Origin: Escherichia phage UPEC03
Length of the DNA stretch: 64,000 nt
Reading direction: 5' to 3' (one strand)
Sequence record: MW250785
Shown: positions 36,554 to 54,338 of the stretch, piece after piece
Layout of the letters: each line of letters begins with the position of its first letter
Numbering within the stretch: the first letter of the stretch is position 1
The notes under the pieces: model-generated
Databases searched by the model: none
What the model saw: the letters and a program-made list of their open reading frames with translations, nothing else
Told to the model about the DNA's origin: nothing
Made by a program: the position numbers and the translations under genes

Positions 36554-36561
36554 TATAATTC

Positions 36562-36589
36562 GGGGGTGCTTACGGCATCCCCTTTTTTA
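36562..36589 (+). terminator. Intrinsic terminator
   Basis: gggggtgc…gcatcccc hairpin + TTTTTT. Confidence 0.7.
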
Positions 36590-36601
36590 TTTGAGGTAAT
36601 C

Positions 36602-37913: not shown

Positions 37914-39337
37914 TCTTTCATACGATTGAATGTGTTCCGTCAAGTGGTAAAACAAAGGCGATTCTGAACCATATCAATCAAACGGGCGAAAAAGCAATCA
38001 TCGCTTCGATTTCCATGATGTTATCAAAACAGTCTTATGACTACTACATCAACCAGGTAAAAGGGAAACGAGCGGTGATTGTGGACACGGATCACCGAAC
38101 CAAAAGAACCAATAATGATGCGCTGCGTGAGGTTGTCAAAGATTATGATGTGATCTTTATCACTCATGCAGCACTCAAAAACATTGATGACTTTGATTTG
38201 TATAAGGATTTTTCTCTGTACATTGACGAAGTTCCTGATTTGGTTGCGTTCGAAAGTCTGCGATTTAATAGCAATATCAAGCACATACGCGAGATTTGCT
38301 TGCCGTTTAGTTGCAATGCCGATGATATCGTTGATTTAAAACTTGACGAAGAAAAACGAGAACTGGTTACACGATTAGCCTATGATGGGCTTCGTAAACG
38401 TGATGATATCGCAATGAAGATGTTCCCGCTTTACCGTGCTCTGTTAGGGGCTATTCCGGTGAAGATGCAATGTAGCGATTCGGGATATGTCTGTTACTTC
38501 GTAGAGGATCATGACGTAAGCCAGTGGAAGTTCAAAAATGTAACCATTGCTTCATCCAACATCAAAGATACGATTACAGGGAAGATCCTACAAACGTTTC
38601 ATGATGTGGAGTTCAAAGATTCACCGCTTCAAACGCTGGTTGACTTTAAGCAATATAAAAACACGAAGCGCATTAAAATACATGTGCTCGCAGAGGGGGA
38701 TTATTCGCGTTATACGGGTGATCTCTCTCAATCTGGGACGACAGTATACACCCAGATTAAAAAACGCGTGGAGGCGCTTTTAGGGGGCGAACAGTTCATC
38801 TATTGCACCAACACGTATCGATCGAAGTTTAGCGAGGGGCAGGAAATCCCGTATAACTCGCACGGATTGAACTTCTATTCGAGCTATACTAACGTGGTAG
38901 CATTATTCAGTTACAACCCGTTACCCTGGCTTCGTCAAATGTTGCGAGCGGTTGCGGTGTCCTCTGGACTCGAAGAGGAAGAATTAGTTGATGCTTATGT
39001 TGTCAGTAAATATTACGAACCAGCCTTTCAGTTATGCGCTCGTTCTGATATCCGACACAACAACAGCAAAAGAAAGATTAATTTATTTGTGCCTGATATG
39101 CGGTTAGCGAAATACATGAAGGAAAAATATTTTCCCGATGCCATTATCGAAACCACAGAAGCAGTTCAAACGAAAAGGCAACGCAAATCATTTCAAACCC
39201 TTTTCCAAATGACGGACAAAGAGAAAAACGCTTTTACGCCATACAAGAAAAGAAACAAATTAGATTATGCGAATCCTCTTCATCACGCGATTGTTAAAGA
39301 TTGGCTGAACAATTACCGTGAGAAAAAGGCGACTTGA
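37910..39337 (+). CDS. P-loop NTPase-like protein (Walker A PSSGKT, Walker B LYIDEV), function unknown
   Basis: 475 aa; N-terminal VPSSGKTKAIL and ~100 aa later FSLYIDEVPD; immediately upstream of gene 34. Confidence 0.5.
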   Translation: MIFHTIECVPSSGKTKAILNHINQTGEKAIIASISMMLSKQSYDYYINQVKGKRAVIVDTDHRTKRTNNDALREVVKDYDVIFITHAALKNIDDFDLYKDFSLYIDEVPDLVAFESLRFNSNIKHIREICLPFSCNADDIVDLKLDEEKRELVTRLAYDGLRKRDDIAMKMFPLYRALLGAIPVKMQCSDSGYVCYFVEDHDVSQWKFKNVTIASSNIKDTITGKILQTFHDVEFKDSPLQTLVDFKQYKNTKRIKIHVLAEGDYSRYTGDLSQSGTTVYTQIKKRVEALLGGEQFIYCTNTYRSKFSEGQEIPYNSHGLNFYSSYTNVVALFSYNPLPWLRQMLRAVAVSSGLEEEELVDAYVVSKYYEPAFQLCARSDIRHNNSKRKINLFVPDMRLAKYMKEKYFPDAIIETTEAVQTKRQRKSFQTLFQMTDKEKNAFTPYKKRNKLDYANPLHHAIVKDWLNNYREKKAT

Positions 39338-39352
39338 TGGTCGCCTTTTTTG
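39327..39352 (+). terminator. Intrinsic terminator before gene 34 late promoter
   Basis: aggcgac…gtcgcct hairpin + TTTTTT. Confidence 0.75.
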
Positions 39353-39354
39353 TT

Positions 39355-39362
39355 TATAAATA
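39355..39362 (+). promoter_or_regulatory. T4-type late promoter TATAAATA (gene 34)
   Basis: Exact TATAAATA after terminator, ~32 nt upstream of gene 34. Confidence 0.65.
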
Positions 39363-39393
39363 TCAGTATTGAATAAGATAAAGGAAAACGATA

Positions 39394-42300
39394 ATGGTAG
39401 CTAAATCATTCCGCGCCACAAGTGGCCTTGATGCTGCTGGCGAAAAAGTTATCAACGTTGGTAAAGCATCACGCTCTGTGTTGAGCGACGGCGTGAACGT
39501 TGACTTTTTTAACGAATTTAACACGATCCAACAATACGATTCTACCCGTGGTTATGCTGCGTTTATGGCTATCATGTACGCGCGTCGTATTTGGTACGCT
39601 CGCGCAGATATTCCATCACCAGCGGGTGCTTTCGATGAAACAAAATGGATCTCAACCCGTAACGATCCAAAATGGGTATATAACAACGTAACGAGCAATG
39701 ACGGTCTCCCTGTTGAATCCGGTACGTACTTAATGGCTGACGGTCGTTTCTCTGAATTGACCTATATTCTGCCAGATGCCCCTGTTGAGGGTGATATTAT
39801 CACTATTAAAGATGGTGGCGGTCTTGCAGGGATCAACAACCTGTTAGTGCGTTCAAACACTCGTCAGATCCGTTTACGTGATATTCAGTCAAGCTCTTAT
39901 CGACTGACTCACCCATATATGACCGTTGCGTTTATTTTTAACGGCAACTTATGGCGTGTTGCTGAAATGCGTGATAACCGTGATTCGCAGTTTGTTAATG
40001 CGACTGGTTTAACCGCTTTCCAAATGCAAGCGGGTATGGTAACATTCCGTAACAGTGGAACGGGTAAAATTACGTTGCAGTTGCCTCGCTACGCAAACGA
40101 TGGTGACTCAATCACAACTTACGATCTGGATCGCCTTGCTTCGGTGAACGTTGCGACTCTGCAAGTTTATCCTGGTAGCGGACACACGATCAGTTATGAC
40201 GGTATCAATAACGTACCCTCTGTGACTTCACAGCGTTCCGGTTATGGTATTTTCATGTTCGATCAGGCTAATAACCGTTGGGTTGTTTATGACGGTGATC
40301 AGCGCGTTCGTCTGCGTCGTATCAGTGATGACCTGAACATGTTGCCGAACGATTACGTGTTCATTACTCCTGTTGCTGGTAGTCCTCCAACTGTGCGTAA
40401 CGTTACGCTGACTCTTCCGCAAGATGTTGCCGAAGGTGATCGCGTGTATATCAGTATGTACATGATGGGGAAAACGCAGAACTGCACGATCAAAGTTAAA
40501 GATGGTTCCGGTGAAAAGATCCGCACCAACAAAAACATGATGCAGTTCCCACAGCGTAAGGATTATCCGCCTAATGATTGGTTCAGTGTTGACACTCTGA
40601 CTTTCAATGCCGATACTGACTATCTTCCATACATGGAATTGTCGTATCTGAAAGCTACGAAAGAATGGGTAGTTGCACAGTATCGCCCGATCATTGAACG
40701 TGTCGATCCAACAAACCGTTCTCGTCTGGGTGTGATTGCGCTGGCTACACAGGCAGAAGTAAACAAGAACCATGAAGATACGCCGTCTGATGAACTGGCA
40801 GTAACCCCGCGTACACTGGCGAATAAAACCGCTACTGAAACGCGTCGTGGTATCGCTCGCCTGGCAACAACTGCGGAAGTTAACCAGAACACGACAGCAA
40901 CCTTCCTTGATGACGTGATCGTGACGCCTAAAAAGCTGAACGAACGATCAGCAACAGAAGATCGTCGTGGGGTGCTGGAAATCGCAACTCAGGCAGAAAC
41001 AAACGCTGGTACTGATGACACTACCGCAATCACGCCTAAGAAGCTCGACACACGCCGCGCGACCGAAACCCTAGCAGGTATCGGAAAACTCGTTACAACG
41101 GGCGCTACGACAGCGGAGGGGGCTTTACGTGGGGATGCTGGTACTAACGTCTACAACTTCAATAACGGTGTTGATCTGATCACTCCGAAATCATTGAACG
41201 AGAAGACGGCGACCGAAAAGTCAAAAGGTCTGGTTGTTCTGGCGACTGAAAACGAAGTGGTAACTGGTGCTGCTGCGGGATCTGCTTCAATGCCGATCGT
41301 AGTAACTCCTGAAATGCTGCATCGTAAAACGTCTACTGAAACGCGTATCGGATTGATTGAGATCGCAACCCAGACAGAAACAAACACGGGAACTGACGAT
41401 CTCCGTGCTGTAACGCCTAAGAAGCTGAACGATCGTAAAGCGACTGAATCACTTGATGGTATTATTGCCCTCGCTACCACTGCGGAAGTTGCAGCAGGTA
41501 CGGTAACGAATAAGGCGGTTGTTCCGGTTAAGCTGAAAGAGTTCTTCGACGTTACAAGTCATGTTGCGGTTGCTACCGATGACGGTTTAACTCAGTCCGG
41601 CACTATCTGGACAACGATTAACCTGGGGATTGCGTCTGCTACTGAAACACAGCGCGGTACTTTACGTGTTGCGACTCAGGGTGAAACTGATGCGGGTCTT
41701 CTGGATACCGTGTTCATTACGCCTAAGAAACTGCAAGCGAAGAAAGCGACGGATACCGCCGAAGGTATTATTCGTTGTGCGACTAACGCGGAAGCGGGTG
41801 CGGGTACTGCTACTAACCTGGCAATTACTCCGGCTACCATGCAGTTCTTGAACGGTACTGATCCGGCGTGGGGTGCGACGACAACTCGACGCGGTGCGGT
41901 GTTTATCACTACCCAATCAAACACTTTCATCGGTGATAATCTGGTTGGTTCTACTCAGGCCGTTGACGATTATCTCGAAGATTTCTATGCTGTATCGCCT
42001 CGCGGTCTGAACTTTGCTCTGCAAAACTTCTTACCGAAAATGGCAACGGCACAGAATAGTTTGAGTCTGGGCGGTGTGGTTGCTGCAAGCTGGATGCGTC
42101 GTGATGCAAACCAGACGGTAACTGGAAATAACACGTTTAACGGTACAAGCAACTTCGTTGGTAACGTAACCACTAACGGAACACTGACGGCTAACGCTGC
42201 GGTAACGGTTAACAACACCGTAACCACGAACAATAACATTAACCAGTCTGCGAAAGCAAACACTGTTTATGCAAATACTGTTCTGAGTGGTGAGGCTGCG

Positions 42301-43053
42301 GGAACCAAAAACTTGCTTCGTACCTTCCGTGGTGGTGTGGCGGATACGATCTGGCATGAAACTGTTCAGGCAAGCACGTATCGCCTGGCGACGGGTACAA
42401 CGGATCTGGTTGACGTTCTGACAGTAGGTGATGTCGGTAACGGCACAATGGCGTATTCCGGTACGAACATTCGTCTGAATGGTAAAGCTCTGGCTAACAT
42501 CAACACGGCGGGTGATTTGTTTGTTGCAAGTACAGCAACGCCTACGGTACAATTACGAACCGCTGCAACTAATGGTTGGAACGGTGTAACAATCAGTAAT
42601 GACGGCGGCACAACCACTGCAACCGTGATCAACACCCGAAACTTTACCCAGCATCTTGACAGTACCTATGTCAACGTAGCGGGTGATACTATGACTGGTG
42701 CGCTGTCAGTTAGCGTAAACGGTACGGGTGGACGCTTTACCAGTGTGAGCGGTACGGCACATGTTCAGGCGGGTGATTTCTCTGGGAACGTCCAGAAAAT
42801 GCGCTTAACTGGCATTGACGATAAGGTATTGACTGAGTTCAACATCAATATCACCGATTACAACAAAGCGATGATCAACGGAAACCTGATCTATCATGCA
42901 GGTCGTAAACCGACTCCGGCAGAAATCGGGGCGGTGGCGGTAGCGGGTTCAACCGTCGATACTCTGGTTGTACGTAACTATATCAAAATCGGTAACGTGA
43001 AAATCTTCGCAAACCCAGCAACTAAGACTTGTGAATTTGTGTGGGAGGAATAA
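39394..43053 (+). CDS. 34: Long tail fiber proximal subunit gp34
   Basis: 1219 aa; repeated …ATETRRGIARLATTAEVNQNTT…RRGVLEIATQAETNAGTDDTTAITPKKL… blocks and C-terminal IGAVA…NYIKIGNVKI…FVWEE match T4 gp34; TATAAATA upstream. Confidence 0.93.
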   Translation: MVAKSFRATSGLDAAGEKVINVGKASRSVLSDGVNVDFFNEFNTIQQYDSTRGYAAFMAIMYARRIWYARADIPSPAGAFDETKWISTRNDPKWVYNNVTSNDGLPVESGTYLMADGRFSELTYILPDAPVEGDIITIKDGGGLAGINNLLVRSNTRQIRLRDIQSSSYRLTHPYMTVAFIFNGNLWRVAEMRDNRDSQFVNATGLTAFQMQAGMVTFRNSGTGKITLQLPRYANDGDSITTYDLDRLASVNVATLQVYPGSGHTISYDGINNVPSVTSQRSGYGIFMFDQANNRWVVYDGDQRVRLRRISDDLNMLPNDYVFITPVAGSPPTVRNVTLTLPQDVAEGDRVYISMYMMGKTQNCTIKVKDGSGEKIRTNKNMMQFPQRKDYPPNDWFSVDTLTFNADTDYLPYMELSYLKATKEWVVAQYRPIIERVDPTNRSRLGVIALATQAEVNKNHEDTPSDELAVTPRTLANKTATETRRGIARLATTAEVNQNTTATFLDDVIVTPKKLNERSATEDRRGVLEIATQAETNAGTDDTTAITPKKLDTRRATETLAGIGKLVTTGATTAEGALRGDAGTNVYNFNNGVDLITPKSLNEKTATEKSKGLVVLATENEVVTGAAAGSASMPIVVTPEMLHRKTSTETRIGLIEIATQTETNTGTDDLRAVTPKKLNDRKATESLDGIIALATTAEVAAGTVTNKAVVPVKLKEFFDVTSHVAVATDDGLTQSGTIWTTINLGIASATETQRGTLRVATQGETDAGLLDTVFITPKKLQAKKATDTAEGIIRCATNAEAGAGTATNLAITPATMQFLNGTDPAWGATTTRRGAVFITTQSNTFIGDNLVGSTQAVDDYLEDFYAVSPRGLNFALQNFLPKMATAQNSLSLGGVVAASWMRRDANQTVTGNNTFNGTSNFVGNVTTNGTLTANAAVTVNNTVTTNNNINQSAKANTVYANTVLSGEAAGTKNLLRTFRGGVADTIWHETVQASTYRLATGTTDLVDVLTVGDVGNGTMAYSGTNIRLNGKALANINTAGDLFVASTATPTVQLRTAATNGWNGVTISNDGGTTTATVINTRNFTQHLDSTYVNVAGDTMTGALSVSVNGTGGRFTSVSGTAHVQAGDFSGNVQKMRLTGIDDKVLTEFNINITDYNKAMINGNLIYHAGRKPTPAEIGAVAVAGSTVDTLVVRNYIKIGNVKIFANPATKTCEFVWEE

Positions 43054-43058
43054 TTTAA

Positions 43059-44654
43059 ATGGCGAATAACGAATTTATGGCGTTATTCGGCCCTGATAGT
43101 TTCACGGCGAGTGTGTTTTCAGAAGCAAACGCCGTGAAATATCGCCTTGTTGTCCGTGGAACGAATAACGATTCTGCGGTCAACTCGGTTGAGGTATCTA
43201 TCAATGGGGCTGATATTATTAACCGAAACGTACAGCGCGGTCGAGGGATTAACCTTGCTGTAATTGACGGTACGAGTTTGGCTTTGCTGGATTTCAAAAC
43301 TTTTGATATGTATGGTGATCCTACTACGAATGGGACTGCGATTAGTGATTACCTATCTACACTTCCAGCAAACAGAATTGTATGTTTCTATACGTTCGAT
43401 GCTATAAAATCTACCGATGCGTTTTTGAGTTATATGCGCACAATCGGATCAGTTGCATGGCCTGAAACACGATTCTTTAACACGCCGTCATCATCAACAA
43501 ACAACCCGCACCGTTCATCCTATTCAGCAATCTATTCATCCACGATGAAAAAGATCTGTATGGAAAACTTCGTAGGTGGTTCTGGTACTGGACTCAAAGA
43601 CAACACGACGAGTTTTGTTGAGGTTGTATTCGATGAATTCAGTGATATCGGGGTAACTGGTATTCCTGAAAGAATGGTTGATGATGTTCAGGTATATCAG
43701 AACAGTGGCAGTGCTTACGGCTTCCATTTATATGGGATGTGGGATATTGGTTCTACTGTTTTCTTGGGGGACATCTTTAAGTTCACTGGTGATGTTTATT
43801 GCTCGCAAGAACTTCGCAATGCTGGCGGCGAATGTTATCTCTATATGTGGACACAGAACGCCTCTGGTCAATGGATATCCTCTGCGGTACTGCGAACAAC
43901 TGGGTTAGCTCCTGATGAATGGCATTCTCTGTCAGGATATTTCACTATCCCTACGGACGCGCTAAACGTGAAGATGGGATGTATGGTATATCACTACCCG
44001 TCTACCGTGAAAGTGGGGCTTGCTCAGTGTCGCAATGTCCAGATCAGTAAAGTTCCACGAATCGAAACCGATCGCAACGGGGCGGCAATTGGTGTAAATG
44101 GTATCAGGATGCAAACGCTTTCCGAAGTTGATGATGCTGGAACCCAAAACCCGATTGATAAATTGCTTTCTCTGCCTGTTTCGCCTACTGGGGTTATTAG
44201 TGACAAGAAAATCAGTTCGCATAACTTTGCTGAACTTGATTATATTGTTTCTGATCCGGTTGAATACACTTCGACAAATACAGCGGAGTACCAGTTCAAA
44301 GAATGGACTGCTACCCAGCAAGCGGCGGTAACGAAAGCATCACTAAGCAGTTACGGATTAAAAGCTGGTGATACGATCCGTATGCAATGCCAAATGAAAC
44401 GCGATGCAAATGCGATTGCTAACAATAAAGGCGCATATATTGTAATGCAGTTCTGGGACGCGAATAATACGTATATTTCAGGGATCAACATGCGTGATGT
44501 TGGTACGATCCCGAACGTATATTCATTCTACAAAAACGAAGGGGTTATTCCTGCTGGTGCGGTTACGTTTGATTTCGGTTTATATCGTTATCCAAACAAC
44601 ACAAACATCGGTACGATATCCGCTAAAGACGTTAATTTGTCAATCGTGAGATAA
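43059..44654 (+). CDS. 35: Long tail fiber hinge connector gp35 (enlarged, GG/ILEI-like N-terminal domain)
   Basis: Position between 34 and 36; N-terminal GINLAVIDGTSLALLDFKTFDMYGD pattern resembles the FAM3/ILEI 'GG' fold reported for gp35 proteins; 531 aa vs ~372 in T4. Confidence 0.65.
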   Translation: MANNEFMALFGPDSFTASVFSEANAVKYRLVVRGTNNDSAVNSVEVSINGADIINRNVQRGRGINLAVIDGTSLALLDFKTFDMYGDPTTNGTAISDYLSTLPANRIVCFYTFDAIKSTDAFLSYMRTIGSVAWPETRFFNTPSSSTNNPHRSSYSAIYSSTMKKICMENFVGGSGTGLKDNTTSFVEVVFDEFSDIGVTGIPERMVDDVQVYQNSGSAYGFHLYGMWDIGSTVFLGDIFKFTGDVYCSQELRNAGGECYLYMWTQNASGQWISSAVLRTTGLAPDEWHSLSGYFTIPTDALNVKMGCMVYHYPSTVKVGLAQCRNVQISKVPRIETDRNGAAIGVNGIRMQTLSEVDDAGTQNPIDKLLSLPVSPTGVISDKKISSHNFAELDYIVSDPVEYTSTNTAEYQFKEWTATQQAAVTKASLSSYGLKAGDTIRMQCQMKRDANAIANNKGAYIVMQFWDANNTYISGINMRDVGTIPNVYSFYKNEGVIPAGAVTFDFGLYRYPNNTNIGTISAKDVNLSIVR

Positions 44655-44675
44655 AGGGGCGAAAGCCCCTTTTTC
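44655..44675 (+). terminator. Intrinsic terminator after gene 35
   Basis: aggggc-gaaa-gcccct + TTTT. Confidence 0.7.
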
Positions 44676-44705
44676 ATAAATACAGTCATTACAGGAGAAA
44701 TTTTT

Positions 44706-44894
44706 ATGGCTGATTTGAAATTAGGTACAACGCTGGGTGGTGCGGGTATCTGGAGTGCTTCTAACCTTCCTCTATTGCCCTCTGGTGGACAATTAACGTA
44801 TAAAGGCTGGAGAGTATACACAGAAAATGATCGTCCAACAGCGGAGGATATAGACGCACTATCGACGATTAACGGCGGTACTGTTGCGGTATAA
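44706..44894 (+). CDS. 36: Distal long tail fibre protein (gp36/37 family), N-terminal fragment truncated by frameshift
   Basis: MADLKLGTTLGG…IWSASNLPLLPSG N-terminus parallels the downstream fibre gene and T4 gp36; terminates inside a 91-bp tandem duplication. Confidence 0.7.
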   Translation: MADLKLGTTLGGAGIWSASNLPLLPSGGQLTYKGWRVYTENDRPTAEDIDALSTINGGTVAV

Positions 44895-44979
44895 AGGCTG
44901 GAGAGTATACACAGAAAATGATCGTCCAACAGCGGAGGATATAGACGCACTATCGACGATTAACGGCGGTACTGTTGCG
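44798..44979 (+). repeat. Perfect tandem duplication, 2 x 91 bp
   Basis: Bases 44798-44888 and 44889-44979 read identically (gtataaaggctggagagtataca…ggtactgttgcg); 91 is not a multiple of 3. Confidence 0.9.
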
Positions 44980-47028
44980 AAGAATACTACATTCAATCAG
45001 AATTTGGTTGTGGGTGCTTCATTAACTGCTAACTTGATTCAATCGAATAGTGTTCTTACCATCCAACGTAGCGCAAACCCTGCGGAAATGATTTTCTATC
45101 GTCCCGATATTACGGCAACCCCGTCATCTGAAGCATGGGTTTTAAACATGTATGCGAAAGATGGTTTGAATCGAGGCATGGGTTCGTTGATTATTTCTGC
45201 TCGTACTGACGGTGGAAATAAAGTATATCTGCGGGCGAATAAAGACGGTTCCCCTAATACAAGTTTAACGCTGGATTCGCAAACCCAACAGGTAACAGTT
45301 GAGCAAGGATCTTTTCGCGTAATCGGTACTACGAATCTTGGTGTGACGAACGCCGCATCAATGGCGGTTAGCGGTGCGGTAACTGCGAATACAGTAACCC
45401 CGACAAACTGGGCTAACCATGATGAACGATATATGACGGGCATTCCTCGCGGTATGTCTGGAACAAGTTTCGGTGCTGCTGTTGTAACTGAAAAGAACGA
45501 TGTTCTGTCGGTAGGCGGTAACATCACCGACGGCCCATATGGTAACACTACGTATTACGGGCAGGTTGTCAACTATCGCCGTACATTGAATAGTGGGGTT
45601 TCATTAGTTCAAACATACTTCGGGAACGAAATGTGGTTTCGTCTTGGATCAGGTTCTCCGGGTGCGTGGTCATGGAACCAGGGCGATGCTAATGGTTGGC
45701 GGCGTGTTTATGATACGGTCAGTCCACCAACTCCGGCAGAAGTGGGGGCAGTAAACAAAGCTGGTGATACAATGACTGGTGGTTTAGCGTTACTTGGGGA
45801 TTTGACCTTTCGAAATTTGGTAAATCGTCATATTCGTTTCGAATACACCAAAAACGACGGTTCTACCGCTGTTGACGCTTACATCTATAAAGATGGTGTA
45901 GATAGCTCTACTCGCCGTGCTGGACTTCGCATTAACTGTGCCACACCGAACAAAGCGAGCGGGAATACTTTAAACTCAGGTGATTTTGTATTCGGGGAGA
46001 ATGGTAACTTCACACTGCCTGGCGGTGGTATGATTATTCAGGACGGCCTTAACTCTGGTGTTTATTGTATTTCTGCATTGAGTACATTATCAACAGGAAC
46101 GAAGAATTACCTTCGTCGTTTCCGTGGTGGTTCTGGTGATGTGATTTTTCATGAAACCGTACAAAGTAATACATGGCGTATAGCGTCGGGTGGTTCTGAT
46201 TCACAAGATGAAATGGTTCTTTCTACTGCTGGTTCTGGTTGGGTTCGATATCGTGGAGAGGTTGTTTCGCAATCAGCTAACGGGTTGCGGATTGCGTATA
46301 ACAATAAAGGATTCTTTATCCGAAATGACTCAAACACCACATATTTCTTGTTGACTAATGATAATGATCCCTATGGCTCGTACAACAGTCTTCGCCCTTT
46401 GTATATCAACAATGATACTGGTTCTGTAACGTTAGGTCATGCTGTTGGAATAGGCGGAAACCTCAGCGTCAACGGTACATTTACCACAGCAAACAGCAGT
46501 TTGAGCAATGGTCAATTAGTATTAAACGGTTCAGGCGATTCGCAAGTTTATTTTTCACGAAGTGGTGCTAACCCTCGCGATATGAGAATTTTCCATTCTG
46601 GTGATGCTTCTCGCGGGAACCGTGTTGAAATTGCTGATTCTACATCATATCTGGTTTATTTTGAGCGTCATCCGTCAAGTGGCATTCAGTTGTCCATGAA
46701 CGGTAACGGTATCTTTAACGATGTGTATATTCGTTCTGATGAAAGACTGAAAAGTAATTTCAGTAAGATTGAAAATGCATTGGATAAAGTTGATTTGCTT
46801 GATGGTATGGTGTACGACAAAGCAAACCATATCGGGGGTGAAGAAACTACCCGCGAGGCTGGTTTAGTCGCACAACAACTGCAAGAAGTATTACCGGAAG
46901 CCGTTAAGAAAGGTGTTGATGGTGAACAGAACGAGATCTTAACTGTTTCGTCTTCTGCTGTTATTGCGTTGCTGGTTAACGCGATTAAAGAACTCCGTGA
47001 GGAAGTCAGGGAACTTAAATCCCGCTAA
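44884..47028 (+). CDS. 36: Distal long tail fibre protein (gp36/37 family), main body, with C-terminal intramolecular chaperone (S74-type) domain
   Basis: Re-encodes YKGWRVYTENDRPTAEDIDALSTINGGTVA from the second repeat copy; conserved NYLRRFRGGSGDVIFHETVQ block; C-terminal DVYIRSDERLKSNF…LVNAIKELREEV self-cleaving chaperone signature. Confidence 0.8.
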   Translation: MRYKGWRVYTENDRPTAEDIDALSTINGGTVAKNTTFNQNLVVGASLTANLIQSNSVLTIQRSANPAEMIFYRPDITATPSSEAWVLNMYAKDGLNRGMGSLIISARTDGGNKVYLRANKDGSPNTSLTLDSQTQQVTVEQGSFRVIGTTNLGVTNAASMAVSGAVTANTVTPTNWANHDERYMTGIPRGMSGTSFGAAVVTEKNDVLSVGGNITDGPYGNTTYYGQVVNYRRTLNSGVSLVQTYFGNEMWFRLGSGSPGAWSWNQGDANGWRRVYDTVSPPTPAEVGAVNKAGDTMTGGLALLGDLTFRNLVNRHIRFEYTKNDGSTAVDAYIYKDGVDSSTRRAGLRINCATPNKASGNTLNSGDFVFGENGNFTLPGGGMIIQDGLNSGVYCISALSTLSTGTKNYLRRFRGGSGDVIFHETVQSNTWRIASGGSDSQDEMVLSTAGSGWVRYRGEVVSQSANGLRIAYNNKGFFIRNDSNTTYFLLTNDNDPYGSYNSLRPLYINNDTGSVTLGHAVGIGGNLSVNGTFTTANSSLSNGQLVLNGSGDSQVYFSRSGANPRDMRIFHSGDASRGNRVEIADSTSYLVYFERHPSSGIQLSMNGNGIFNDVYIRSDERLKSNFSKIENALDKVDLLDGMVYDKANHIGGEETTREAGLVAQQLQEVLPEAVKKGVDGEQNEILTVSSSAVIALLVNAIKELREEVRELKSR

Positions 47029-47031
47029 TTA

Positions 47032-47056
47032 AAAGCCCTTCGGGGCTTTTTCTTTT
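47032..47056 (+). terminator. Intrinsic terminator after gene 36
   Basis: aaagccc-ttcg-gggcttt + T-run. Confidence 0.75.
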
Positions 47057-47064
47057 TATAAATA
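47057..47064 (+). promoter_or_regulatory. T4-type late promoter TATAAATA (gene 37)
   Basis: Exact TATAAATA after terminator, upstream of gene 37. Confidence 0.65.
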
Positions 47065-47090
47065 TCATAAAAGCATTTGAGGATCTAATA

Positions 47091-49304
47091 ATGGCAGATT
47101 TAAAAGCGGGTACTACCGTTGGCGGTAATACTATCTGGAGTCAGGCAAATTTACCTGTTCTTCCTTCTGGAAATACTTTAACATACAAAGGCTTTAAGGT
47201 ATATACCGAAAACGACAAACCAACAAAAGCCGAAATCGGGTTAGGCAACGTAACGAACGACGCACAGGTGAAGAAAGCTGGCGATGATATGACCGGATCT
47301 CTGAACATCACAGGGGCGAATAGTCAATTAACTGTTCCTTATCGCCTGTTGATGCAACGTGCGGTTGCTGGAGATCCATACGTCCTGTTTGTTCGTCCAG
47401 ACAACAACCCAATTACTAACGGATATCCTTCTACAACGCTTCGTGTAATGACTATCACTGCCCGTGCTGCGACAACTACTGATCCGGTTTCTGGCGCTCA
47501 ACTGGCAAACATTTTGTCAGATCAGACAGCACAGGGTAACGGGTCATTAACTCTGCAAGCGTTTGCAGCCCCGAACACATCTACGGGCGCAAGCGGTGCG
47601 CGTACAGCGGAAGTCTATTTGAACGGTAACGGACAGTTATCAATGATAGGTTCCGGTTTAACGATCGGGATGCAGACTGTTGTAAACGGTACGATTTTCG
47701 GTACACAAATGGCTATTAAAGGCGATTCGAACCGAAACCTGTTCTTCCAGGATGCTGGCGATAATGAATTGAGTTTGATTTATGCGGATACCGGAAAGAA
47801 CTTATATGTTCGTACTGGTGGCGGCGCATATGCTACTCGTTTCGCTTCTGATGGAACTTTAGTATTAGCAAATCATCTAACCGTTCCTGGTATTGCTACT
47901 TTTAACGGTCAAGCAGTGATGAATAGCCGTTTGTCTGTGTCTACTGATTTTGACTCTCAGGGAGTCAATAGTGCGGTTATTCGTGTTGACACAAGCGGCG
48001 ACGGAAACGCGGTTGGTGATGGTGTAACCCATTTAGGATATAAAGACGGCAACGGAAGATTCAACCATTATTTCCGTGGTACTGGATCGTTATTTGTTAA
48101 CACCAAACTTGGTATGAACATCAACGTACCATCTTATTATAACGATGTACCACAAACCACTCCAGCACAATATTTCTTGTCTACGGGTACGCAAGGCGCG
48201 AAAAATTATTTGCGTCAGTTCCGAGGCGGCAACGCGGATACGATCTGGCATGAAACTGTTCAGGGTGGCTTATATCGTTTAGCGTCTGGTAGCACTGATG
48301 CGCAAGAAGAATTCATGGTTTCTACTGCTGGCTATATCAGATCTCGCGTAGAAGTACAAAGTGCTTCGTGTGGTTCTGGCGGTCAGTTCCGCGCGGTTCA
48401 GGGTAACTTCGGCGTGATGCACCGAAATGATGGTGGTAACTATTACTTCCTGATTACTAACTCTGGCGATCCGTGGGGAACGTGGAACGGATTACGCCCA
48501 TTCACCATTGGTTTGACCACGGGTATTGTATCGATGTCCAGCGGTGTTAATATCTCCGGTGGTTTCAACATCAACGGTGCTGCTGAATTTAACAACGGTC
48601 TGGGTTGTGGTACTGCAAACGGATTGGGCGCAAACGCAATATCTCTGGGTGATACCGATACAGGTTTTGTTCAAGAAGGTGATGGTATTCTCAACGCCTA
48701 CGCGAACAGCCAACGAATTCAACGTTGGACAACAGGGGCTAGTGCAGTTTATAAGCAATTGCAGGTTCAAGGCGTTAACGGGCCAGCATTACTTCTGAAC
48801 AACACCGCAAGCAACCAGTCTGTATACATGCTTTTGCAATATGCAGGTACAAACGCTGGTTATCTGGGCTTTGGTGGTTCTGATAACACCATGACAATGC
48901 ACAACTACCAGTTGAATACAAACTTACAGTTGCGCGTAAGTGACATATATGTAAACCGTGCATTGTATGGTGAAAGCACAGGCAACTTTACTGATGTGTA
49001 TATTCGTTCAGATCGCCGTCTAAAATCGAACCTGGTTGAGATTAAAGATGCTCTGGTTAAAGTAGAACAGCTTACAGGCTATGTATACGATAAACAATCA
49101 AAAGATGCGGACGAAATTGTATACCATCGCGAATCTGGTCTGATTGCACAAGATGTTCAGGAAGTATTACCTGATGCAGTAAAAGAAGATAGTAACTCCG
49201 GTATGCTTACGATTTCACCTGCGGGTGTTAACGCGCTTCTGGTGAATGCAATCAACGAACTGCGCGAACGTCTGGAAGCAATTGAAAACAAATTAGGGGC
49301 TTAA
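47091..49304 (+). CDS. 37: Distal long tail fibre protein gp37 with C-terminal intramolecular chaperone domain
   Basis: 737 aa; N-terminus MADLKAGTTVGG; NYLRQFRGGNADTIWHETVQ block; T4 gp37-like GDGVTHLGYKDGNGRFNHYFRGTG; C-terminal DVYIRSDRRLKSN…LVNAINELRERL; TATAAATA upstream. Confidence 0.9.
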   Translation: MADLKAGTTVGGNTIWSQANLPVLPSGNTLTYKGFKVYTENDKPTKAEIGLGNVTNDAQVKKAGDDMTGSLNITGANSQLTVPYRLLMQRAVAGDPYVLFVRPDNNPITNGYPSTTLRVMTITARAATTTDPVSGAQLANILSDQTAQGNGSLTLQAFAAPNTSTGASGARTAEVYLNGNGQLSMIGSGLTIGMQTVVNGTIFGTQMAIKGDSNRNLFFQDAGDNELSLIYADTGKNLYVRTGGGAYATRFASDGTLVLANHLTVPGIATFNGQAVMNSRLSVSTDFDSQGVNSAVIRVDTSGDGNAVGDGVTHLGYKDGNGRFNHYFRGTGSLFVNTKLGMNINVPSYYNDVPQTTPAQYFLSTGTQGAKNYLRQFRGGNADTIWHETVQGGLYRLASGSTDAQEEFMVSTAGYIRSRVEVQSASCGSGGQFRAVQGNFGVMHRNDGGNYYFLITNSGDPWGTWNGLRPFTIGLTTGIVSMSSGVNISGGFNINGAAEFNNGLGCGTANGLGANAISLGDTDTGFVQEGDGILNAYANSQRIQRWTTGASAVYKQLQVQGVNGPALLLNNTASNQSVYMLLQYAGTNAGYLGFGGSDNTMTMHNYQLNTNLQLRVSDIYVNRALYGESTGNFTDVYIRSDRRLKSNLVEIKDALVKVEQLTGYVYDKQSKDADEIVYHRESGLIAQDVQEVLPDAVKEDSNSGMLTISPAGVNALLVNAINELRERLEAIENKLGA

Positions 49305-49329
49305 TGCCCCTCTTTAAGAGGAATATTTT

Positions 49330-50142
49330 ATGGCTGTTGTAGGCGTACCTGGTTGGATCGGGTCTTCTGCTGTAAGCGAAACGGGTCAAAGATGGATGTC
49401 CGCTGCTGCGGGACAACTTCGATTATCTGCTGCGGGTTATATGTCACGATTTGCGGGGATCTCCCGTGAACAATCAATAACAATTTCCGCGAGTAACGCA
49501 TACGCATGGTCAACCCTGGTCAACCAGATTAAATCATTGGGTGTATCCGGTGGTGCATTCAAAATTACTGTTGTCGGGAACATCGTTTCAAACAGTGCTG
49601 GCGCTCCGTGCCTTAACTTCACATCCGATCTTGCTGGTGTCGATTATATCGAACTGATCATTAACTCCGGTGTAGGTGTTATGGGTCGTGGTGGTGCGGG
49701 TGGTGGTGATAACACAGGTGGCCCGTATTCGTCCGGTGAAAATGGTGGTGTCGGTATTACTAACGCGATCGGAAACAAACTGCGAATAACGAACAATGGT
49801 TATATTGCGGGTGGTGGTGGTGGTGGTGGCCTGGTAAACATGCCAACTTCTACATCACGACGTGTACAGGTATCCGGTGGTGGTGGTCGACCTTTCGGTG
49901 CTGCTGGTACAGGTGGTTATGACGGTAACGGTACAGCGGCAACAATTTCCGCTCCTGGTTCCGGTGGTTCTTCGAGTCTATCACAAGCTGGTGCGGGTGG
50001 TAACTTAGGTGCGGCTGGTCAATATCCACCTAAAGCCGATGGTCGTCTGGAAGCTCAAGCGGCGGGTGCTGCGGGTGCTGCGGTTAACGGTAACGCGCCA
50101 ACGTGGAGAACTGTAGGGACAATTTACGGTTCGAGAGTTTAA
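49330..50142 (+). CDS. 38: Tail fibre adhesin gp38 (T2-type, glycine-rich motifs)
   Basis: MAVVGVPGWIGSSAVSETGQRWMS N-terminus, poly-Gly islands (GGGGGGG, GGGGRPFGAAG), C-terminal WRTVGTIYGSRV as recalled for T2/T6 gp38. Confidence 0.85.
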   Translation: MAVVGVPGWIGSSAVSETGQRWMSAAAGQLRLSAAGYMSRFAGISREQSITISASNAYAWSTLVNQIKSLGVSGGAFKITVVGNIVSNSAGAPCLNFTSDLAGVDYIELIINSGVGVMGRGGAGGGDNTGGPYSSGENGGVGITNAIGNKLRITNNGYIAGGGGGGGLVNMPTSTSRRVQVSGGGGRPFGAAGTGGYDGNGTAATISAPGSGGSSSLSQAGAGGNLGAAGQYPPKADGRLEAQAAGAAGAAVNGNAPTWRTVGTIYGSRV

Positions 50143-50195
50143 GTAAATTCCTAAATATAATCGGGGGTCGGCATCCCCGAACTTGAGGATTAAAC

Positions 50196-50840
50196 ATGGC
50201 GCTATTACAAGATAAATTGGCGGTGCTTGAACGGGTAATATCGTTCATCATGGCGGTCAAAACATGGAAACAGTTATTCATTAAATTGGTTCTTATCGTC
50301 ACTATTTTCATTATGTTCGTAACATGGTACAAGTGGGATGACTTATTTTCAGTCTGGAAAACATCTTCAATCGTTATAGACGTGCCGACGATGGAGATTG
50401 AAAAGGCAAAAAAGTTTGAATCCGCATCCATCGAACAGTTAAACATAGTGCATTTAACTACGGATGCGGATTTTTCGGCAATCTTTGGTTTCAGACCTAA
50501 GAATGTCAATTATTTTGTTGATATAATTGCGTATGAAGGGAAGTTACCGCAACAGATTAACCCGAAAAATCTGGGTGGCTATCCTATAGACAAGACATCG
50601 GAAGAGTATAATAGACATATAAACGGGCTGTACTATATCTCAGATATTGCAAGCCCGTATCTTCCAACAAAAGACCTTGTTCCGGTAGCATATACCTTTA
50701 GTTGTCCTTATTTCAATCTCGAAAACTACTATTCTGGATCGATTCTAATGGAATGGTATATACAGAAGCCCGAAGTCACCGATACGAAGTTGATGATCGT
50801 GTGCAATCAGGCCGCTAGAATTTTAGGCAGGGTTCGATGA
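50196..50840 (+). CDS. t: Holin T
   Basis: 214 aa; N-terminal TM segment; FRPKNVNYFVDIIAYEGKLP, CPYFNLENYYSGSILMEWY, CNQAARILGR match T4 holin t. Confidence 0.93.
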   Translation: MALLQDKLAVLERVISFIMAVKTWKQLFIKLVLIVTIFIMFVTWYKWDDLFSVWKTSSIVIDVPTMEIEKAKKFESASIEQLNIVHLTTDADFSAIFGFRPKNVNYFVDIIAYEGKLPQQINPKNLGGYPIDKTSEEYNRHINGLYYISDIASPYLPTKDLVPVAYTFSCPYFNLENYYSGSILMEWYIQKPEVTDTKLMIVCNQAARILGRVR

Positions 50841-51098
50841 TAATTTCAGTTTCAAACCGCTTAAAGCCCGATCGATGAAATCTTTTACTTTCGTCATCGG
50901 GCTTTTGTCGTATATGTCCCATACGCGCATGAGTTCGTAAGGTGTCGGAACATATTCATCGTTCCAGTATCCAACATTACCTATCGTAACGCGTCGGAAA
51001 CCAGCCTCTACGCTGTGATATACAAAGAACCCAGCCTTACCCACAGGGGAGACTTTAAAACCGCGTGTAGCGGCTTTCATGGCTTCGTCGTGTGTCAT
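50823..51098 (-). CDS. Small protein, candidate DUF2829/Tad2-like
   Basis: 91 aa; N-terminal MTHDEAMKAATRGFKV… and …MRVWDIYD resemble the (F/M)xEAL..LK.GKKV … DWEIV pattern recalled for DUF2829. Confidence 0.3.
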   Translation of the reverse strand: MTHDEAMKAATRGFKVSPVGKAGFFVYHSVEAGFRRVTIGNVGYWNDEYVPTPYELMRVWDIYDKSPMTKVKDFIDRALSGLKLKLSSNPA

Positions 51099-51397
51099 GA
51101 TAGAATCACTTCGCCTCTGTATTGATTGTGATAGATGTATGGACGAACACCCAGTGGGTGATTATCTATGACTAAGATCAGGTCAAGTTCGTCGTGGTTA
51201 TCATCTTCTGCAACTATATCCCAGTCGGTCGCTTTCTGTTCTTCAACACTGGCAATGAATACCTGGTTAATCTCAACCTTACGGTGAGAACGGCGAATGA
51301 TCGTATCCCCTTCGCGGAACACGATCATATCTGGGTTAATCGGGCGGTACGCGGTTTTACCCGCGCACACTTCATTAAGCATTTCTTCGTATGTCAT
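51095..51397 (-). CDS. Small protein, candidate DUF2829/Tad2-like (paralog)
   Basis: 100 aa; MTYEEMLNEVCAGKTAYRP… and …ATDWDIVAED fit the same pattern. Confidence 0.3.
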   Translation of the reverse strand: MTYEEMLNEVCAGKTAYRPINPDMIVFREGDTIIRRSHRKVEINQVFIASVEEQKATDWDIVAEDDNHDELDLILVIDNHPLGVRPYIYHNQYRGEVILS

Positions 51398-52194
51398 TAT
51401 AATACCTTTACTCGCTGAACGATTGTTTGTTTAACTTCTTTGTATTCGTTGTGAAGTTTAGGTGTCGCTTTGAAGCGAATCACATCACCCTCTTCAACAA
51501 TTTTGTTTCCGTAGTAGATAACCACGTTACCATCTACGTTGATTTTGGTCATGAAACGTTCCACTTCGGTGTAATAAGAAACTTGGGTATATCCGAGAGA
51601 AATCACTTTCTCAACAACCCCGCTCATTTCCATACGCTTACCGATTTCCCCGATGTGCTGTGCTGCTGCGATCTTCGCCTGGCGCTCTGCTTCCCATTCT
51701 GCGCGGATCTCTTCACGTTTAGCGATGTAATCCTTCTCCAGCGCTACGCCCATGCAGTAAGAGCAAATAGCCTGAAATACTGGGCTATCGTTGCCGTTTT
51801 CTTTGCACTGATCAGCCCACCACAGAATCGTATACATCGGCATATCAGCAATCACTTCACCTTTACGCTTACCGATTGGCATGATGCCCTGTTCCAGCAG
51901 TTCCAGGTTTTCGGTATCCTGTACAGACAGTTTGCCGCGACGTTCAAACAGATCGAAATCTGCGAATCCCTGGAACACCATCTGGAAAGTGTCGGTCTGG
52001 TTCAGACGATCCACCATGCGATCGAAGTATTCACGCGCTTTCGCTTCTGCTTTATCTGGGTCGGTAGACAGGTTGCAGATATAGTTATCAGAAGTGAATC
52101 CACCTCCACGACGCTCTACACGCAGGGTGTACATAGCGTTTTTAGCGCCAGAAGAAATGAAGTATGTCGCGGTAACTTTAGTCAGGTTAGTCAT
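51397..52194 (-). CDS. Hypothetical protein (266 aa)
   Basis: Start at ATG (MTNLTKV) with AAGGAG RBS; first gene of a three-gene - strand unit ending with the two DUF2829-like ORFs. Confidence 0.55.
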   Translation of the reverse strand: MTNLTKVTATYFISSGAKNAMYTLRVERRGGGFTSDNYICNLSTDPDKAEAKAREYFDRMVDRLNQTDTFQMVFQGFADFDLFERRGKLSVQDTENLELLEQGIMPIGKRKGEVIADMPMYTILWWADQCKENGNDSPVFQAICSYCMGVALEKDYIAKREEIRAEWEAERQAKIAAAQHIGEIGKRMEMSGVVEKVISLGYTQVSYYTEVERFMTKINVDGNVVIYYGNKIVEEGDVIRFKATPKLHNEYKEVKQTIVQRVKVL

Positions 52195-52270
52195 GGTGAA
52201 TCTCCTTAGTGGTTTCGTTTCGACAAGGCCAATATAGCAAAAGCCCTCAACCGAAGTCAAGGGCTTTTTA

Positions 52271-52498
52271 TCATGCGTTCGAATCTTTCATAACTTTATG
52301 AAGATGGATATCAAAAATTTTCCAGTATGCTTTTCCGCGAGGATAAATTTTTGCTTTATCAATGTCTTCGTTGCTTCCCCATGTATTGTTTGGGTTACGA
52401 CAACGATTTTTTGCATAATCCATGTGCCAGAATAAGCGCTGCACCGATGAATCTGTGCCTAATGGATCTTCTTTGCTGAACAGAATTTGTGAACTCAT
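52271..52498 (-). CDS. Hypothetical small protein
   Basis: 75 aa ORF followed by hairpin terminator. Confidence 0.45.
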   Translation of the reverse strand: MSSQILFSKEDPLGTDSSVQRLFWHMDYAKNRCRNPNNTWGSNEDIDKAKIYPRGKAYWKIFDIHLHKVMKDSNA

Positions 52499-52911
52499 AA
52501 GAAGAAACCTGTTCGAACTACTAAATCGATCTGTTTTTCCGGTATCAGTGGCGCTTTATCGTCAACGTTGCACTGATAATACATCCCGACATACTCATGA
52601 GGAACGTTGGATTCGCTCGCCCATTTCAGGTTGTCATCTGTACGCGGCCCTAACATGAGGTTAACGATATTGACAGCGTGATCCTGTTCTGGGGTATTGT
52701 TGCATCCGTTCACATAATGTCCGTGAGCGGTTTTGAGGATTTCAATGATATCTTCGTCGGCTTCAACGAGATACAGCCCCGTGTTTTCTGGGATTTCCTC
52801 AAGAATAATCAAAGCGGTTTTCATCACACTTACCTTTATGTTTCTGCTTACGTTTTGCTTCTTTAAGTGCTCGCTTGCGATCGCGGTGAGTAGAAGCGCG
52901 GTTGAAATCAT
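52495..52911 (-). CDS. Hypothetical protein
   Basis: ORF; true start may be the internal Met at 52824. Confidence 0.45.
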   Translation of the reverse strand: MISTALLLTAIASEHLKKQNVSRNIKVSVMKTALIILEEIPENTGLYLVEADEDIIEILKTAHGHYVNGCNNTPEQDHAVNIVNLMLGPRTDDNLKWASESNVPHEYVGMYYQCNVDDKAPLIPEKQIDLVVRTGFFL

Positions 52912-52929
52912 GTTTCGCTACCAGGTTGT

Positions 52930-53160
52930 TCATCGAGGATATAATGGCACATGATGTTGAATACTGACTTCGCCATACAGTTTTACGATAGTTAAGCTAT
53001 CAGATCCTTTAACAATTCTGTATTTTTCTGGAACAACGCGGTCGATTTCTTTTTTGACAAAGTTAAGCAATCCGAAGTCATCTATATCTTTTGGTGCTTT
53101 GGAAATAGAAGACAACGATACTCGTTGACGTGAATCATAGTACGAAGAAATTACAAACAT
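52930..53160 (-). CDS. Hypothetical small protein
   Basis: 76 aa ORF. Confidence 0.4.
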   Translation of the reverse strand: MFVISSYYDSRQRVSLSSISKAPKDIDDFGLLNFVKKEIDRVVPEKYRIVKGSDSLTIVKLYGEVSIQHHVPLYPR

Positions 53161-53204
53161 ATATTATTTTCCTTATTGGGGCTTTTCAGCCCCATTTTAG
53201 ATAA

Positions 53205-53459
53205 TTAATCCAGCAGTTTGCGGATTTTATCCGCGATACGTCCGGCGCGTGTTGCGCTTGCGGTATGATCGCTTTCTTTGGTAGCCAGTTCAGCCAGCTT
53301 ACGCTGATGTTCTTCTTCCGCTGCTTTGCGGTCTGCTGCTACCTGTGCGACCTGTTCGTTATCGTGAGCAATACGCGCTTCGAGTTCGGTCAGGGTTTTG
53401 TCAAAAGTTGCTACGATTTCGTCTACAGAACGGATTTTGGAAAACAGTTTCATATTCAT
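53205..53459 (-). CDS. Hypothetical coiled-coil protein
   Basis: 84 aa charged helical ORF. Confidence 0.45.
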   Translation of the reverse strand: MNMKLFSKIRSVDEIVATFDKTLTELEARIAHDNEQVAQVAADRKAAEEEHQRKLAELATKESDHTASATRAGRIADKIRKLLD

Positions 53460-53467
53460 TATCTCAA

Positions 53468-53905
53468 TTAGTATGGTTGGAATTCAAAGTCAAACAGATC
53501 ATTTAGTGCGCGGTTGTATTCAGTATAGTTCTCACCATCCCCGAACCGCATCTGAATCGCGCTTTCCGCTATTGTACCAGTAAGATTCGAGAAACCAAAG
53601 AGGTTTTTAATCTTATCGTGTGCAACGAAGTACAGAGAAGCACTATCCAGCAAGGCCACCATCGCTGATGGTTCATGTTCGCGGCGTTTGATGCGTAACA
53701 GAGTACGGTTTGCGCCAGTCTTACGGCGTTGATTTGGGGCTACGTAGAATCGAAATACTACTTTACCCGTTTTATCATCAACTACCAGGTAGAAGCCGTG
53801 TTCTTTCAGGTCAACCCCTTCGAACTTGGTGAAGTCACCGCGCTTCATGTCACCTATCTTAACAGCGTATTTGTGGATGTCAAGCCTTGTCAGAATTCTT
53901 TTCAT
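53468..53905 (-). CDS. Hypothetical protein
   Basis: 145 aa ORF. Confidence 0.5.
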   Translation of the reverse strand: MKRILTRLDIHKYAVKIGDMKRGDFTKFEGVDLKEHGFYLVVDDKTGKVVFRFYVAPNQRRKTGANRTLLRIKRREHEPSAMVALLDSASLYFVAHDKIKNLFGFSNLTGTIAESAIQMRFGDGENYTEYNRALNDLFDFEFQPY

Positions 53906-54293: not shown

Positions 54294-54338
54294 AATCGAA
54301 TCCTCCGCGCCTGAATCGCTCCAGGCGCTGTTTTGGGG

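Follow-up and report, generated by a model that had tools for sequence, protein, structure and literature searches.

A perfect 91-bp tandem duplication in a long-tail-fibre gene of Escherichia phage UPEC03 is most likely a genome-assembly error

The window that we analysed, a stretch of 64,000 nucleotides from Escherichia phage UPEC03 (sequence record MW250785), contains a perfect 91-bp tandem duplication that divides a long-tail-fibre gene between two reading frames. We consider the duplication itself most likely to be an error of genome assembly, not biology: the unit is single-copy in all of the relatives checked, and it is single-copy in an independent assembly of an identical phage. As for the specific cause, we infer with considerable confidence that the second copy is a k = 91 overlap from the ends of a circular contig, which was left untrimmed when the genome was re-opened (rotated) elsewhere.

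The two copies are directly adjacent (spacing 91) and identical at 91/91 positions by direct string comparison. The sole array reported by TRF is the same one (44798-44979: period 91, 2.0 copies, 100% matches, 0 indels, score 364), in agreement with a sequence-only reading that had described a perfect 91-bp tandem duplication here. The chance of a perfect 91-nt tandem repeat arising anywhere in 64 kb is about 1e-50; this repeat is far beyond chance. Its copies are as follows.

44798-44888, + strand: copy 1 of the 91-bp unit, which matches the native sequence and codes for fibre residues ~32-61 (YKGWRVYTENDRPTAEDIDALSTINGGTVA); from TRF, string identity and alignment to single-copy relatives
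44889-44979, + strand: copy 2 (the extra copy), missing in every relative checked and in the Logan assembly of the identical phage; from TRF, string identity, the relatives and that assembly

String comparison also reveals that the repeat cannot be extended by even one base on either side, i.e., there is 0 nt of junction microhomology: the left flank ends in AAC and the unit in GCG, and the right flank starts with AAG and the unit with GTA. The left boundary reads …CAATTAAC followed by GTATAAAG…, the right boundary …CTGTTGCG followed by AAGAATAC…, and the novel junction between copy 1 and copy 2 …GGTACTGTTGCG followed by GTATAAAGGCTGG…. Among native direct repeats at the site, the best is GACAATTAACG/GACGATTAACG (an 11-nt near-repeat, 7-11 nt, its halves 76 bp apart), and the duplication does not use it. 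Besides the 91-bp unit, the 64-kb window holds one exact repeat of at least 25 nt, a 31-mer (42340/48234).

Because 91 mod 3 = 1, the number of copies sets the reading frame of the gene: two copies bring in a stop at 44892, and one leaves an intact 743-aa ORF. The window as given therefore displays two frames.

44706-44894, + strand: truncated N-terminal fibre ORF, 62 aa; from ORF calls and translation
44884-47028, + strand: rest of the fibre gene in the +1 frame, 714 codons; from ORF calls

The 62-aa ORF begins with ATG and is translated as MADLKLGTTLGG...GTVAV; its stop (44892-44894) is created by the copy 1/copy 2 junction, and an exact protein look-up of this truncated product returned no match. 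The TTG ‘start’ of the longer ORF is a mechanical ORF boundary only. When one copy is deleted, 2232 nt (743 codons) run across 44706-47028 with no internal stop. The sequence-only reading had proposed just this: a first frame stopped at 44892-44894, 714 codons continuing from 44884 in +1, and a fibre protein of ~743 aa in the single-copy version; the ORFs bear out each part.

It could be argued that the duplication is real and that one protein with a 30-aa internal repeat is nonetheless made, by programmed +1 frameshifting or by re-initiation at 44884; the two frames share 11 nt (44884-44894), within which a +1 shift would fuse them. We regard this as extremely improbable. Under the established rules for frameshift sites, the overlap (GTTGCGGTATAAAGG) has no slippery motif, and its P-site GUA cannot re-pair in +1 with UAU; moreover, neither an in-frame ATG close to 44884 nor a convincing Shine-Dalgarno for the TTG is present, and such an arrangement of frames occurs in no relative examined.

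Key information on copy number emerged from an exact look-up of the single-copy 743-aa protein, which is recorded on one contig only, Logan SRR16019039_40. Once one copy is deleted, the window contains the whole of this 5832-bp contig (0 mismatches; window positions 42341-48263). Two further contigs of the same run are exact substrings of the window: SRR16019039_43 (27910-42369) and SRR16019039_41 (48235-60142). Together, the three tile window positions 27910-60142, that is, 32.2 kb with 0 mismatches, in which the sole difference is the extra 91 bp. Since the best GenBank relatives are no more than 96-98% identical (the nearest about 98%), SRR16019039 holds this very phage, and the same identity would link the run to the assembly of the window. 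No paper turned up in a full-text literature search for SRR16019039.

Logan contigs are assembled from 31-mers, and each 31-mer is present once only (PMC12424806). Such contigs can never show two copies of the unit; the argument for a single copy is the absence of a contig break. An internal control is provided by the window's only other repeat:

42340-42370, + strand: 31-bp exact repeat, copy A, in the gp34-like gene; left boundary of SRR16019039_40
48234-48264, + strand: 31-bp exact repeat, copy B, in the second fibre paralog; right boundary of SRR16019039_40

All three contigs end exactly at this repeat (42340/48234), i.e., the k=31 assembly does break at real repeats, and no contig of SRR16019039 breaks at the 91-bp unit. 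In a k=31 de Bruijn simulation, the single-copy sequence yielded the Logan contig base for base, as one unitig that starts at 42341 and is exactly 5832 bp long. The two-copy window, by contrast, broke at 44797, 44858, 44888 and 44949, with a 2487-bp unitig. The contig is reproduced from the single-copy sequence only; therefore, as tested through the k=31 assembly, the reads of SRR16019039 behaved as single-copy. Other look-ups add little: the 737-aa product of the neighbouring fibre paralog had no exact match, which is expected given that the break in the Logan contig falls within the paralog; a 429-aa ORF had none either, its start codon in the query probably being wrong; and a conserved 277-aa protein was found in other phages only, which is uninformative for SRR16019039.

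The relatives lead to the same copy number. Comparison with related T4-like genomes at this site, a check that the sequence-only reading had proposed, yielded exactly one copy of the unit in 8/8 loci, and an intact ORF of 721-745 aa in each of the seven loci that hold the complete gene. Ten INPHARED records match an 80-nt junction probe only as separate halves (0/10 contiguous). The novel junction was not found in IMG/VR or JGI metagenome contigs, and the first 36 nt of the unit had no match in IMG/VR, GTDB genome contigs or JGI metagenome contigs; no source contig with the unit at either end was thereby traced.

The surrounding region is the long-tail-fibre module of a Pseudotevenvirus (T4-like, Straboviridae), in the gene order gp34-like, gp35-like, fibre, fibre, gp38, holin. 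The neighbours of the split gene are:

43059-44654, + strand: gp35-like hinge/connector, 531 aa, with an ILEI domain, immediately upstream of the fibre gene
47091-49304, + strand: downstream fibre paralog, 737 aa, intact; from ORF, domain and paralog comparison
49330-50142, + strand: gp38 adhesin, 270 aa (Gp38_N + GP38), which ends the fibre module
50196-50840: holin t, after gp38

The repaired 743-aa protein has a T4 gp36-like N-terminus (47% identity to T4 gp36 over the N-terminal 72 aa, E = 1e-19 by direct comparison), a Gp34_trimer domain and a C-terminal Peptidase_S74 intramolecular chaperone. It matches the S16 gp37 tip structure 6f45; a PDB sequence search with its N-terminal 120 aa gave no relevant structure. 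N-terminus, module position and domains together assign the gene to the T4-type distal long-tail fibres (gp36/gp37 class). The 737-aa paralog combines a gp36-like N-terminus with Gp34_trimer, gp37_trimer and Peptidase_S74 domains, and the two proteins are 45% identical over 113 aa of the N-terminal block and 35% identical over 378 aa of the C-terminal half. Thus, two further observations of the sequence-only reading stand: the restored fibre resembles its downstream paralog (743 vs 737 aa), and both share the block YKG[WF][RK]VYTEND. Assembly confusion between the paralogs was also considered and was rejected, as their N-termini share no exact repeat of at least 25 nt. The module itself is ordinary for the genus; a literature search on Pseudotevenvirus fibres found nothing on the two-paralog arrangement.

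Redundancy is plausible, as the phage also has the gp38 adhesin and another distal-fibre gene that is intact and whose product shares the gp36-like N-terminus; it has to be weighed whether a stock or passage different from that in SRR16019039 gained the duplication by illegitimate recombination, so that the fibre was knocked out and its loss was tolerated. The 737-aa paralog with gp38 would then suffice on the propagation host. Laboratory phage stocks can lose fibres, the lambda PaPa stf frameshift being one example; furthermore, the duplication is present in the sequence as given, and the perfect identity of its copies fits a very recent event. However, the only evidence derived from reads of the identical genome points to a single copy, and no relative checked carries the duplication. 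Its endpoints, moreover, have 0 nt of short direct repeat even though a direct repeat of 7-11 nt was available at the site; endpoint microhomology is not an absolute requirement, bearing in mind that topoisomerase-mediated events can proceed without homology. Read support for the junction at genome-level depth, which could be tested indirectly through the k=31 assembly of SRR16019039, did not appear. T4-like phages have very active homologous recombination, and from what is known of T4 biology we would expect a perfect 91-bp repeat that inactivates a conserved structural gene to be lost quickly if that gene has any value. The recent inactivating duplication that the sequence-only reading had listed as a second option is thus contradicted by the only read-derived evidence, and we judge it unlikely.

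Its third option was a reversible slipped-strand switch: a mixed population of one-copy (fibre ON) and two-copy (OFF) molecules that interconvert by slippage or recombination, as bet-hedging over the distal fibre. Here, the arithmetic is suggestive: since 91 is not divisible by 3, a change in copy number does shift the frame of the target; that target determines host range, as is usual for such switches; and the step from two copies to one is easy by homologous recombination. Known slipped-strand switches, however, are arrays of many short units, and there are only 2.0 copies of a 91-bp unit in this gene, with no tract of several short units. With no boundary microhomology from which to regain the same duplication, the switch would be one-way. 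Neither the 10 INPHARED junction-probe records nor the 8 loci (8/8 single-copy) exhibit copy-number polymorphism, searches of IMG/VR and JGI metagenome contigs did not recover the junction, and the unit is absent from all three contig collections searched. We therefore find no support for the switch, and hold it to be very unlikely.

A two-copy minority might nevertheless escape notice. At the 4x coverage cut-off that we take Minia to apply, the hidden two-copy fraction would lie roughly below one third of the molecules. Logan graph cleaning drops low-coverage paths, by which a two-copy sub-population could be hidden (PMC12424806). The window's assembler would then have happened to report the two-copy form of a mixed population, which is hard to credit given that a minority path is not normally output by an assembler. 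A related proposal, that a real two-copy form coexists with the one-copy form, silences one of the two gp36-type distal fibres and reverts often by homologous recombination, strikes us as just as improbable; if true, it would give a T4-like phage a crude ON/OFF control over which fibre it uses, visible here only because one assembler put out the minority or stock-specific form. An invertase-type switch was likewise rejected: no inverted repeats flanking the 91-bp segment were found.

We favour an assembly artefact, the first of the options in the sequence-only reading: over 32.2 kb with 0 mismatches, the k=31 assembly of the identical phage is single-copy and encodes the intact 743-aa protein. 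Our proposal for the origin of the extra copy runs as follows. T4-like phages are circularly permuted. When a de Bruijn assembler handles a circular or circularly permuted genome, it leaves an overlap U of k-mer length at both contig ends; if such a contig (U...U) were re-opened elsewhere, or joined end to end, with one U untrimmed, the two U copies would come to lie side by side, as a perfect tandem U-U whose position is arbitrary. In this case, the join would fall 92 bases into the long-tail-fibre gene and, 91 not being divisible by 3, would look like a frameshift; the real phage would have a single copy of the unit and an unbroken distal fibre protein of 743 aa.

Several features of the duplication resemble such an end overlap. 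The copies are 100% identical, the boundaries are arbitrary both in sequence (zero microhomology, no recombination signal) and in position relative to genes, and the length is odd and no greater than 127; the extra copy is missing in the independent assembly, in which a minority variant could be hidden. Being odd and <128, 91 is an admissible de Bruijn k for SPAdes-type assemblers and may be the k that was used. It differs from the familiar default values of 55, 77, 99 or 127; we take it that 91 is not a default k of common assemblers, and the explanation presupposes a custom k or one that was chosen automatically. Another difference is that this artefact normally occupies both ends of a linear contig, whereas here the repeat is internal and tandem; an extra step, rotation or end-joining without trimming, is therefore needed. 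Rotation has precedent in this genus: the position of the fibre gene varies among records (~39 kb, 45 kb or 168-172 kb), and these differing linearisation points show that depositors rotate records routinely. The record of the closest relative is annotated as circular.

Comparison with known systems is instructive. Host-range duplications in T4 gene 37 have reportedly been described; these too are tandem duplications within a T-even-type long-tail-fibre gene that determines host range. They are, however, in frame and located in the C-terminal adhesin region, arise between short motifs that recur, came from selection for a wider host range and are experimentally verified, whereas the duplication here is out of frame, in the N-terminal attachment region, free of flanking repeats and unsupported by reads. 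In lambda PaPa, a frameshift in stf is said to account for the loss of fibres from the laboratory strain: as here, a tail-fibre gene is split into two ORFs, and restoration of the frame gives a full-length fibre. That lesion is a 1-bp change, for which genetics and the sequence of Ur-lambda provided confirmation, in contrast to the present case, in which an independent assembly is without the lesion. The invertible segments of Mu (Gin) and P1 (Cin), and phase variation at simple sequence repeats, toggle the expression or specificity of tail fibres. The duplication shares the frame-dependent ON/OFF logic of the repeat-mediated switches; unlike these systems, it has no flanking recombinase or inverted repeats, no short-unit array and no copy-number polymorphism among the relatives checked.

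Taken at face value, the duplication would make a pseudogene of a conserved host-range gene and invite stories of fibre phase variation or host-range loss. Reading it as an artefact prevents a false annotation, i.e., two fragment ORFs in place of one 743-aa fibre protein, and flags sequence record MW250785 for correction. The approach is also reusable: the exact ‘repaired’ protein is looked up in independent read-derived assemblies, and a k-mer graph is then simulated to establish which copy number is compatible with the contigs recovered.

Signals upstream of the fibre gene were found by an inverted repeat search and sequence inspection:

44650-44682, + strand: upstream signals of the fibre gene

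These comprise a terminator-like hairpin, GATAAAGGGGC-GAAA-GCCCCTTTTTC, at 44650-44675, and then CATAAATA at 44675-44682, which is one mismatch away from the T4 late-promoter motif (we take the T4 consensus to be TATAAATA). A Shine-Dalgarno, AGGAG, of the 62-aa fibre ORF lies at 44693-44697. The fibre gene's own expression signals are thus intact.

The window derives from a Pseudotevenvirus, a T4-like member of the Straboviridae in the GAP161/leB group, whose hosts are Enterobacter, Cronobacter, Klebsiella and Citrobacter. The region around the duplication is the long-tail-fibre module, and its gene order is the same as in T4:

39394-43053, gp34-like, 1219 aa
43059-44654, gp35-like, 531 aa
44706-47028, affected fibre gene (paralog 1), site of the 91-bp duplication
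47091-49304, fibre paralog 2, 737 aa
49330-50142, gp38 adhesin, 270 aa, Gp38_N and GP38 domains
50196-50840, holin t

Within paralog 1, positions 44798-44888 and 44889-44979 form a perfect tandem repeat (TRF: period 91, 2.0 copies, 100% matches, score 364), and string comparison found both copies identical; with a chance probability of ~1e-50, such a repeat cannot have arisen by chance. The ATG ORF from 44706 runs for 62 codons to a stop at 44892-44894, and the downstream remainder of the gene (714 codons) is read in the +1 frame as far as 47028. Deletion of one copy yields 2232 nt, or 743 codons with no internal stops. The sequence-only reading, which had described a perfect duplication that frameshifts a fibre gene, and a single ORF of ~743 aa restored on removing one copy, is borne out in each of these respects. 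That frameshifting or re-initiation operates across the junction of the two copies is scarcely credible: the junction sequence offers it no support.

The same reading's pairing of this gene with a downstream paralog of 737 aa also holds: the two proteins are 45% identical over their first 113 aa, including the common YKG[WF][RK]VYTEND block, and 35% identical over their last 378 aa. The N-terminus of the repaired protein (the product after deletion of one copy) resembles T4 gp36 (47% identity over 72 aa, E = 1e-19); its domains are Gp34_trimer and a C-terminal Peptidase_S74 intramolecular chaperone, and it matches solved structures of phage Mu tail fibre protein S, T4 gp34 and the S16 gp37 tip. 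Judged by these resemblances, 'distal long-tail-fibre gene' is a fair label. Paralog 1 is preceded by its own terminator hairpin, by CATAAATA, which resembles a late promoter, and by an AGGAG ribosome-binding site.

Each of the eight related loci that we fetched has the unit exactly once, and all seven with a complete gene have an intact ORF of 721-745 aa. The records closest to the window are those of Enterobacter phage vB_EkoM5VN, at 98.2% identity, and Klebsiella phage Kp_GWPR59, at 96.6%; both are single-copy, with the 743-aa CDS annotated and intact. The 10 INPHARED records that an 80-nt junction probe picks out match it as separate halves and in no case contiguously, and the junction was not found in IMG/VR or JGI metagenome contigs. 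A relative from another public run (Logan SRR18174251_1861, 9353-11578) has a single unit that matches the window's at 100% identity and lies in an intact fibre gene of 741 aa; this relative is a possible further control for read-level checks.

The exact 743-aa repaired protein is recorded on one contig only, Logan SRR16019039_40, the 5832 bp of which are an exact substring of the one-copy window (42341-48263, 0 mismatches). Two more contigs of this run are exact substrings of 27910-42369 and 48235-60142, giving 32.2 kb with 0 mismatches, and the extra 91 bp is the sole difference. Set against the best public relatives, at about 96-98% identity, this agreement indicates that run SRR16019039 contains the window's phage itself. 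In Logan, every SRA run is assembled by Minia3 on 31-mers, each of which occurs once in the output (PMC12424806); no Logan contig can therefore show two unit copies, and what is informative is whether a break falls at the unit. That real repeats interrupt this k=31 assembly is seen in the three contigs, which end exactly at the one other exact repeat in the window, a 31-mer at 42340-42370 and 48234-48264. We simulated the k=31 de Bruijn graph for both versions: the one-copy sequence gave a unitig of exactly 5832 bp from 42341, identical to SRR16019039_40, whereas the two-copy window broke at 44797, 44858, 44888 and 44949 and gave a unitig of just 2487 bp. The reads behaved like a single-copy genome. 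A fixed duplication in this run is excluded; a two-copy minority sub-population, pruned as a low-coverage path, is the sole form that could have escaped detection.

Beyond the edges of the repeat not one further base matches on either side, so junction microhomology is absent. A duplication that is real, fixed and inactivating could be imagined in a different stock, since a second distal-fibre paralog and a gp38 adhesin are present in the phage, but we regard it as unlikely: the read-derived assembly contradicts it, no relative supports it, and its endpoints lack microhomology. Earlier interpretation had also proposed a reversible slipped-strand switch of the fibre gene, which fails the tests that define it and is very improbable: a tract of many units is lacking, copy number does not vary among the relatives checked, and there is no route by which the same duplication could be regained. 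The one-copy assembly of SRR16019039 supports the artefact that had been listed beside it, and we consider that the duplication is very probably not a real biological feature. T4-like genomes are circularly permuted and come out of assembly as circles, for which a de Bruijn assembler reports a linear contig with its last k bases repeated at its two ends; in the proposed mechanism, re-opening that contig elsewhere, untrimmed, would join the two ends into a perfect tandem repeat at an arbitrary place inside the sequence. Such re-opening is common practice in this genus, since its records start at different points. Several features fit such an artefact: perfectly identical copies, an odd repeat length inside the allowed k range, arbitrary boundaries free of microhomology, a native direct repeat, the best that the site offers (GACAATTAACG/GACGATTAACG, 76 bp apart), that was not used, and a position within a gene that is otherwise universally intact. 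We infer that the cause was specifically k = 91 plus rotation. Searching contig collections with the unit did not trace the source contig of the window's assembly, and our literature search found no paper naming run SRR16019039. In practice, the record should be corrected and a single 743-aa fibre gene annotated.

Adjacent distal-fibre paralogs (721-745 aa and 737-743 aa) occur as a pair genus-wide (window 44706-49304 and five related loci). Both window paralogs begin with a T4 gp36-like N-terminus, where docking on gp35 is expected, and in all loci both carry Gp34_trimer and their own C-terminal S74 chaperone, an arrangement that suggests that the two are alternative distal half-fibres and not gp36 and gp37 in series. 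Relatives' annotations are inconsistent ('small' versus 'large' distal subunits), and a literature search found no paper addressing the two-paralog arrangement. The 31-bp identity between the gp34-like gene (42340-42370) and paralog 2 (48234-48264) is in frame in both, encoding ADTIWHETVQ inside the common motif N(L/Y)LRxFRGGxADTIWHETVQ; flanking DNA is 26-44% identical (ungapped), and paralog 1 keeps the motif with diverged DNA. Fibre-domain swapping could use this island for recombination or gene conversion. The window's 270-aa gp38 (49330-50142) has short glycine-rich repeats (GGT x6.7 at 49810, GCGGGTGCT x2.4 at 50062); at that position the relatives with the paralog 1 most similar to the window's (vB_EkoM5VN, Kp_GWPR59 and the SRR18174251 relative) encode a protein of 172 aa instead. 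The fibre module is a mosaic, with vB_EkoM5VN nearest for paralog 1 (98.2%) and EcL22g nearest for window 47000-64000 (98.2%).

Elsewhere, the window has two I-TevI-like homing-endonuclease ORFs. One (31832-32683, 283 aa, NUMOD3/I-TevI DNA-binding domain), directly after nrdD, is present in an SRR16019039 contig and absent at that spot in four related loci (L005-L008); the other (11102-11737, 211 aa) is an insert, shared with relatives, between the two capsid genes of the Gp23 family.
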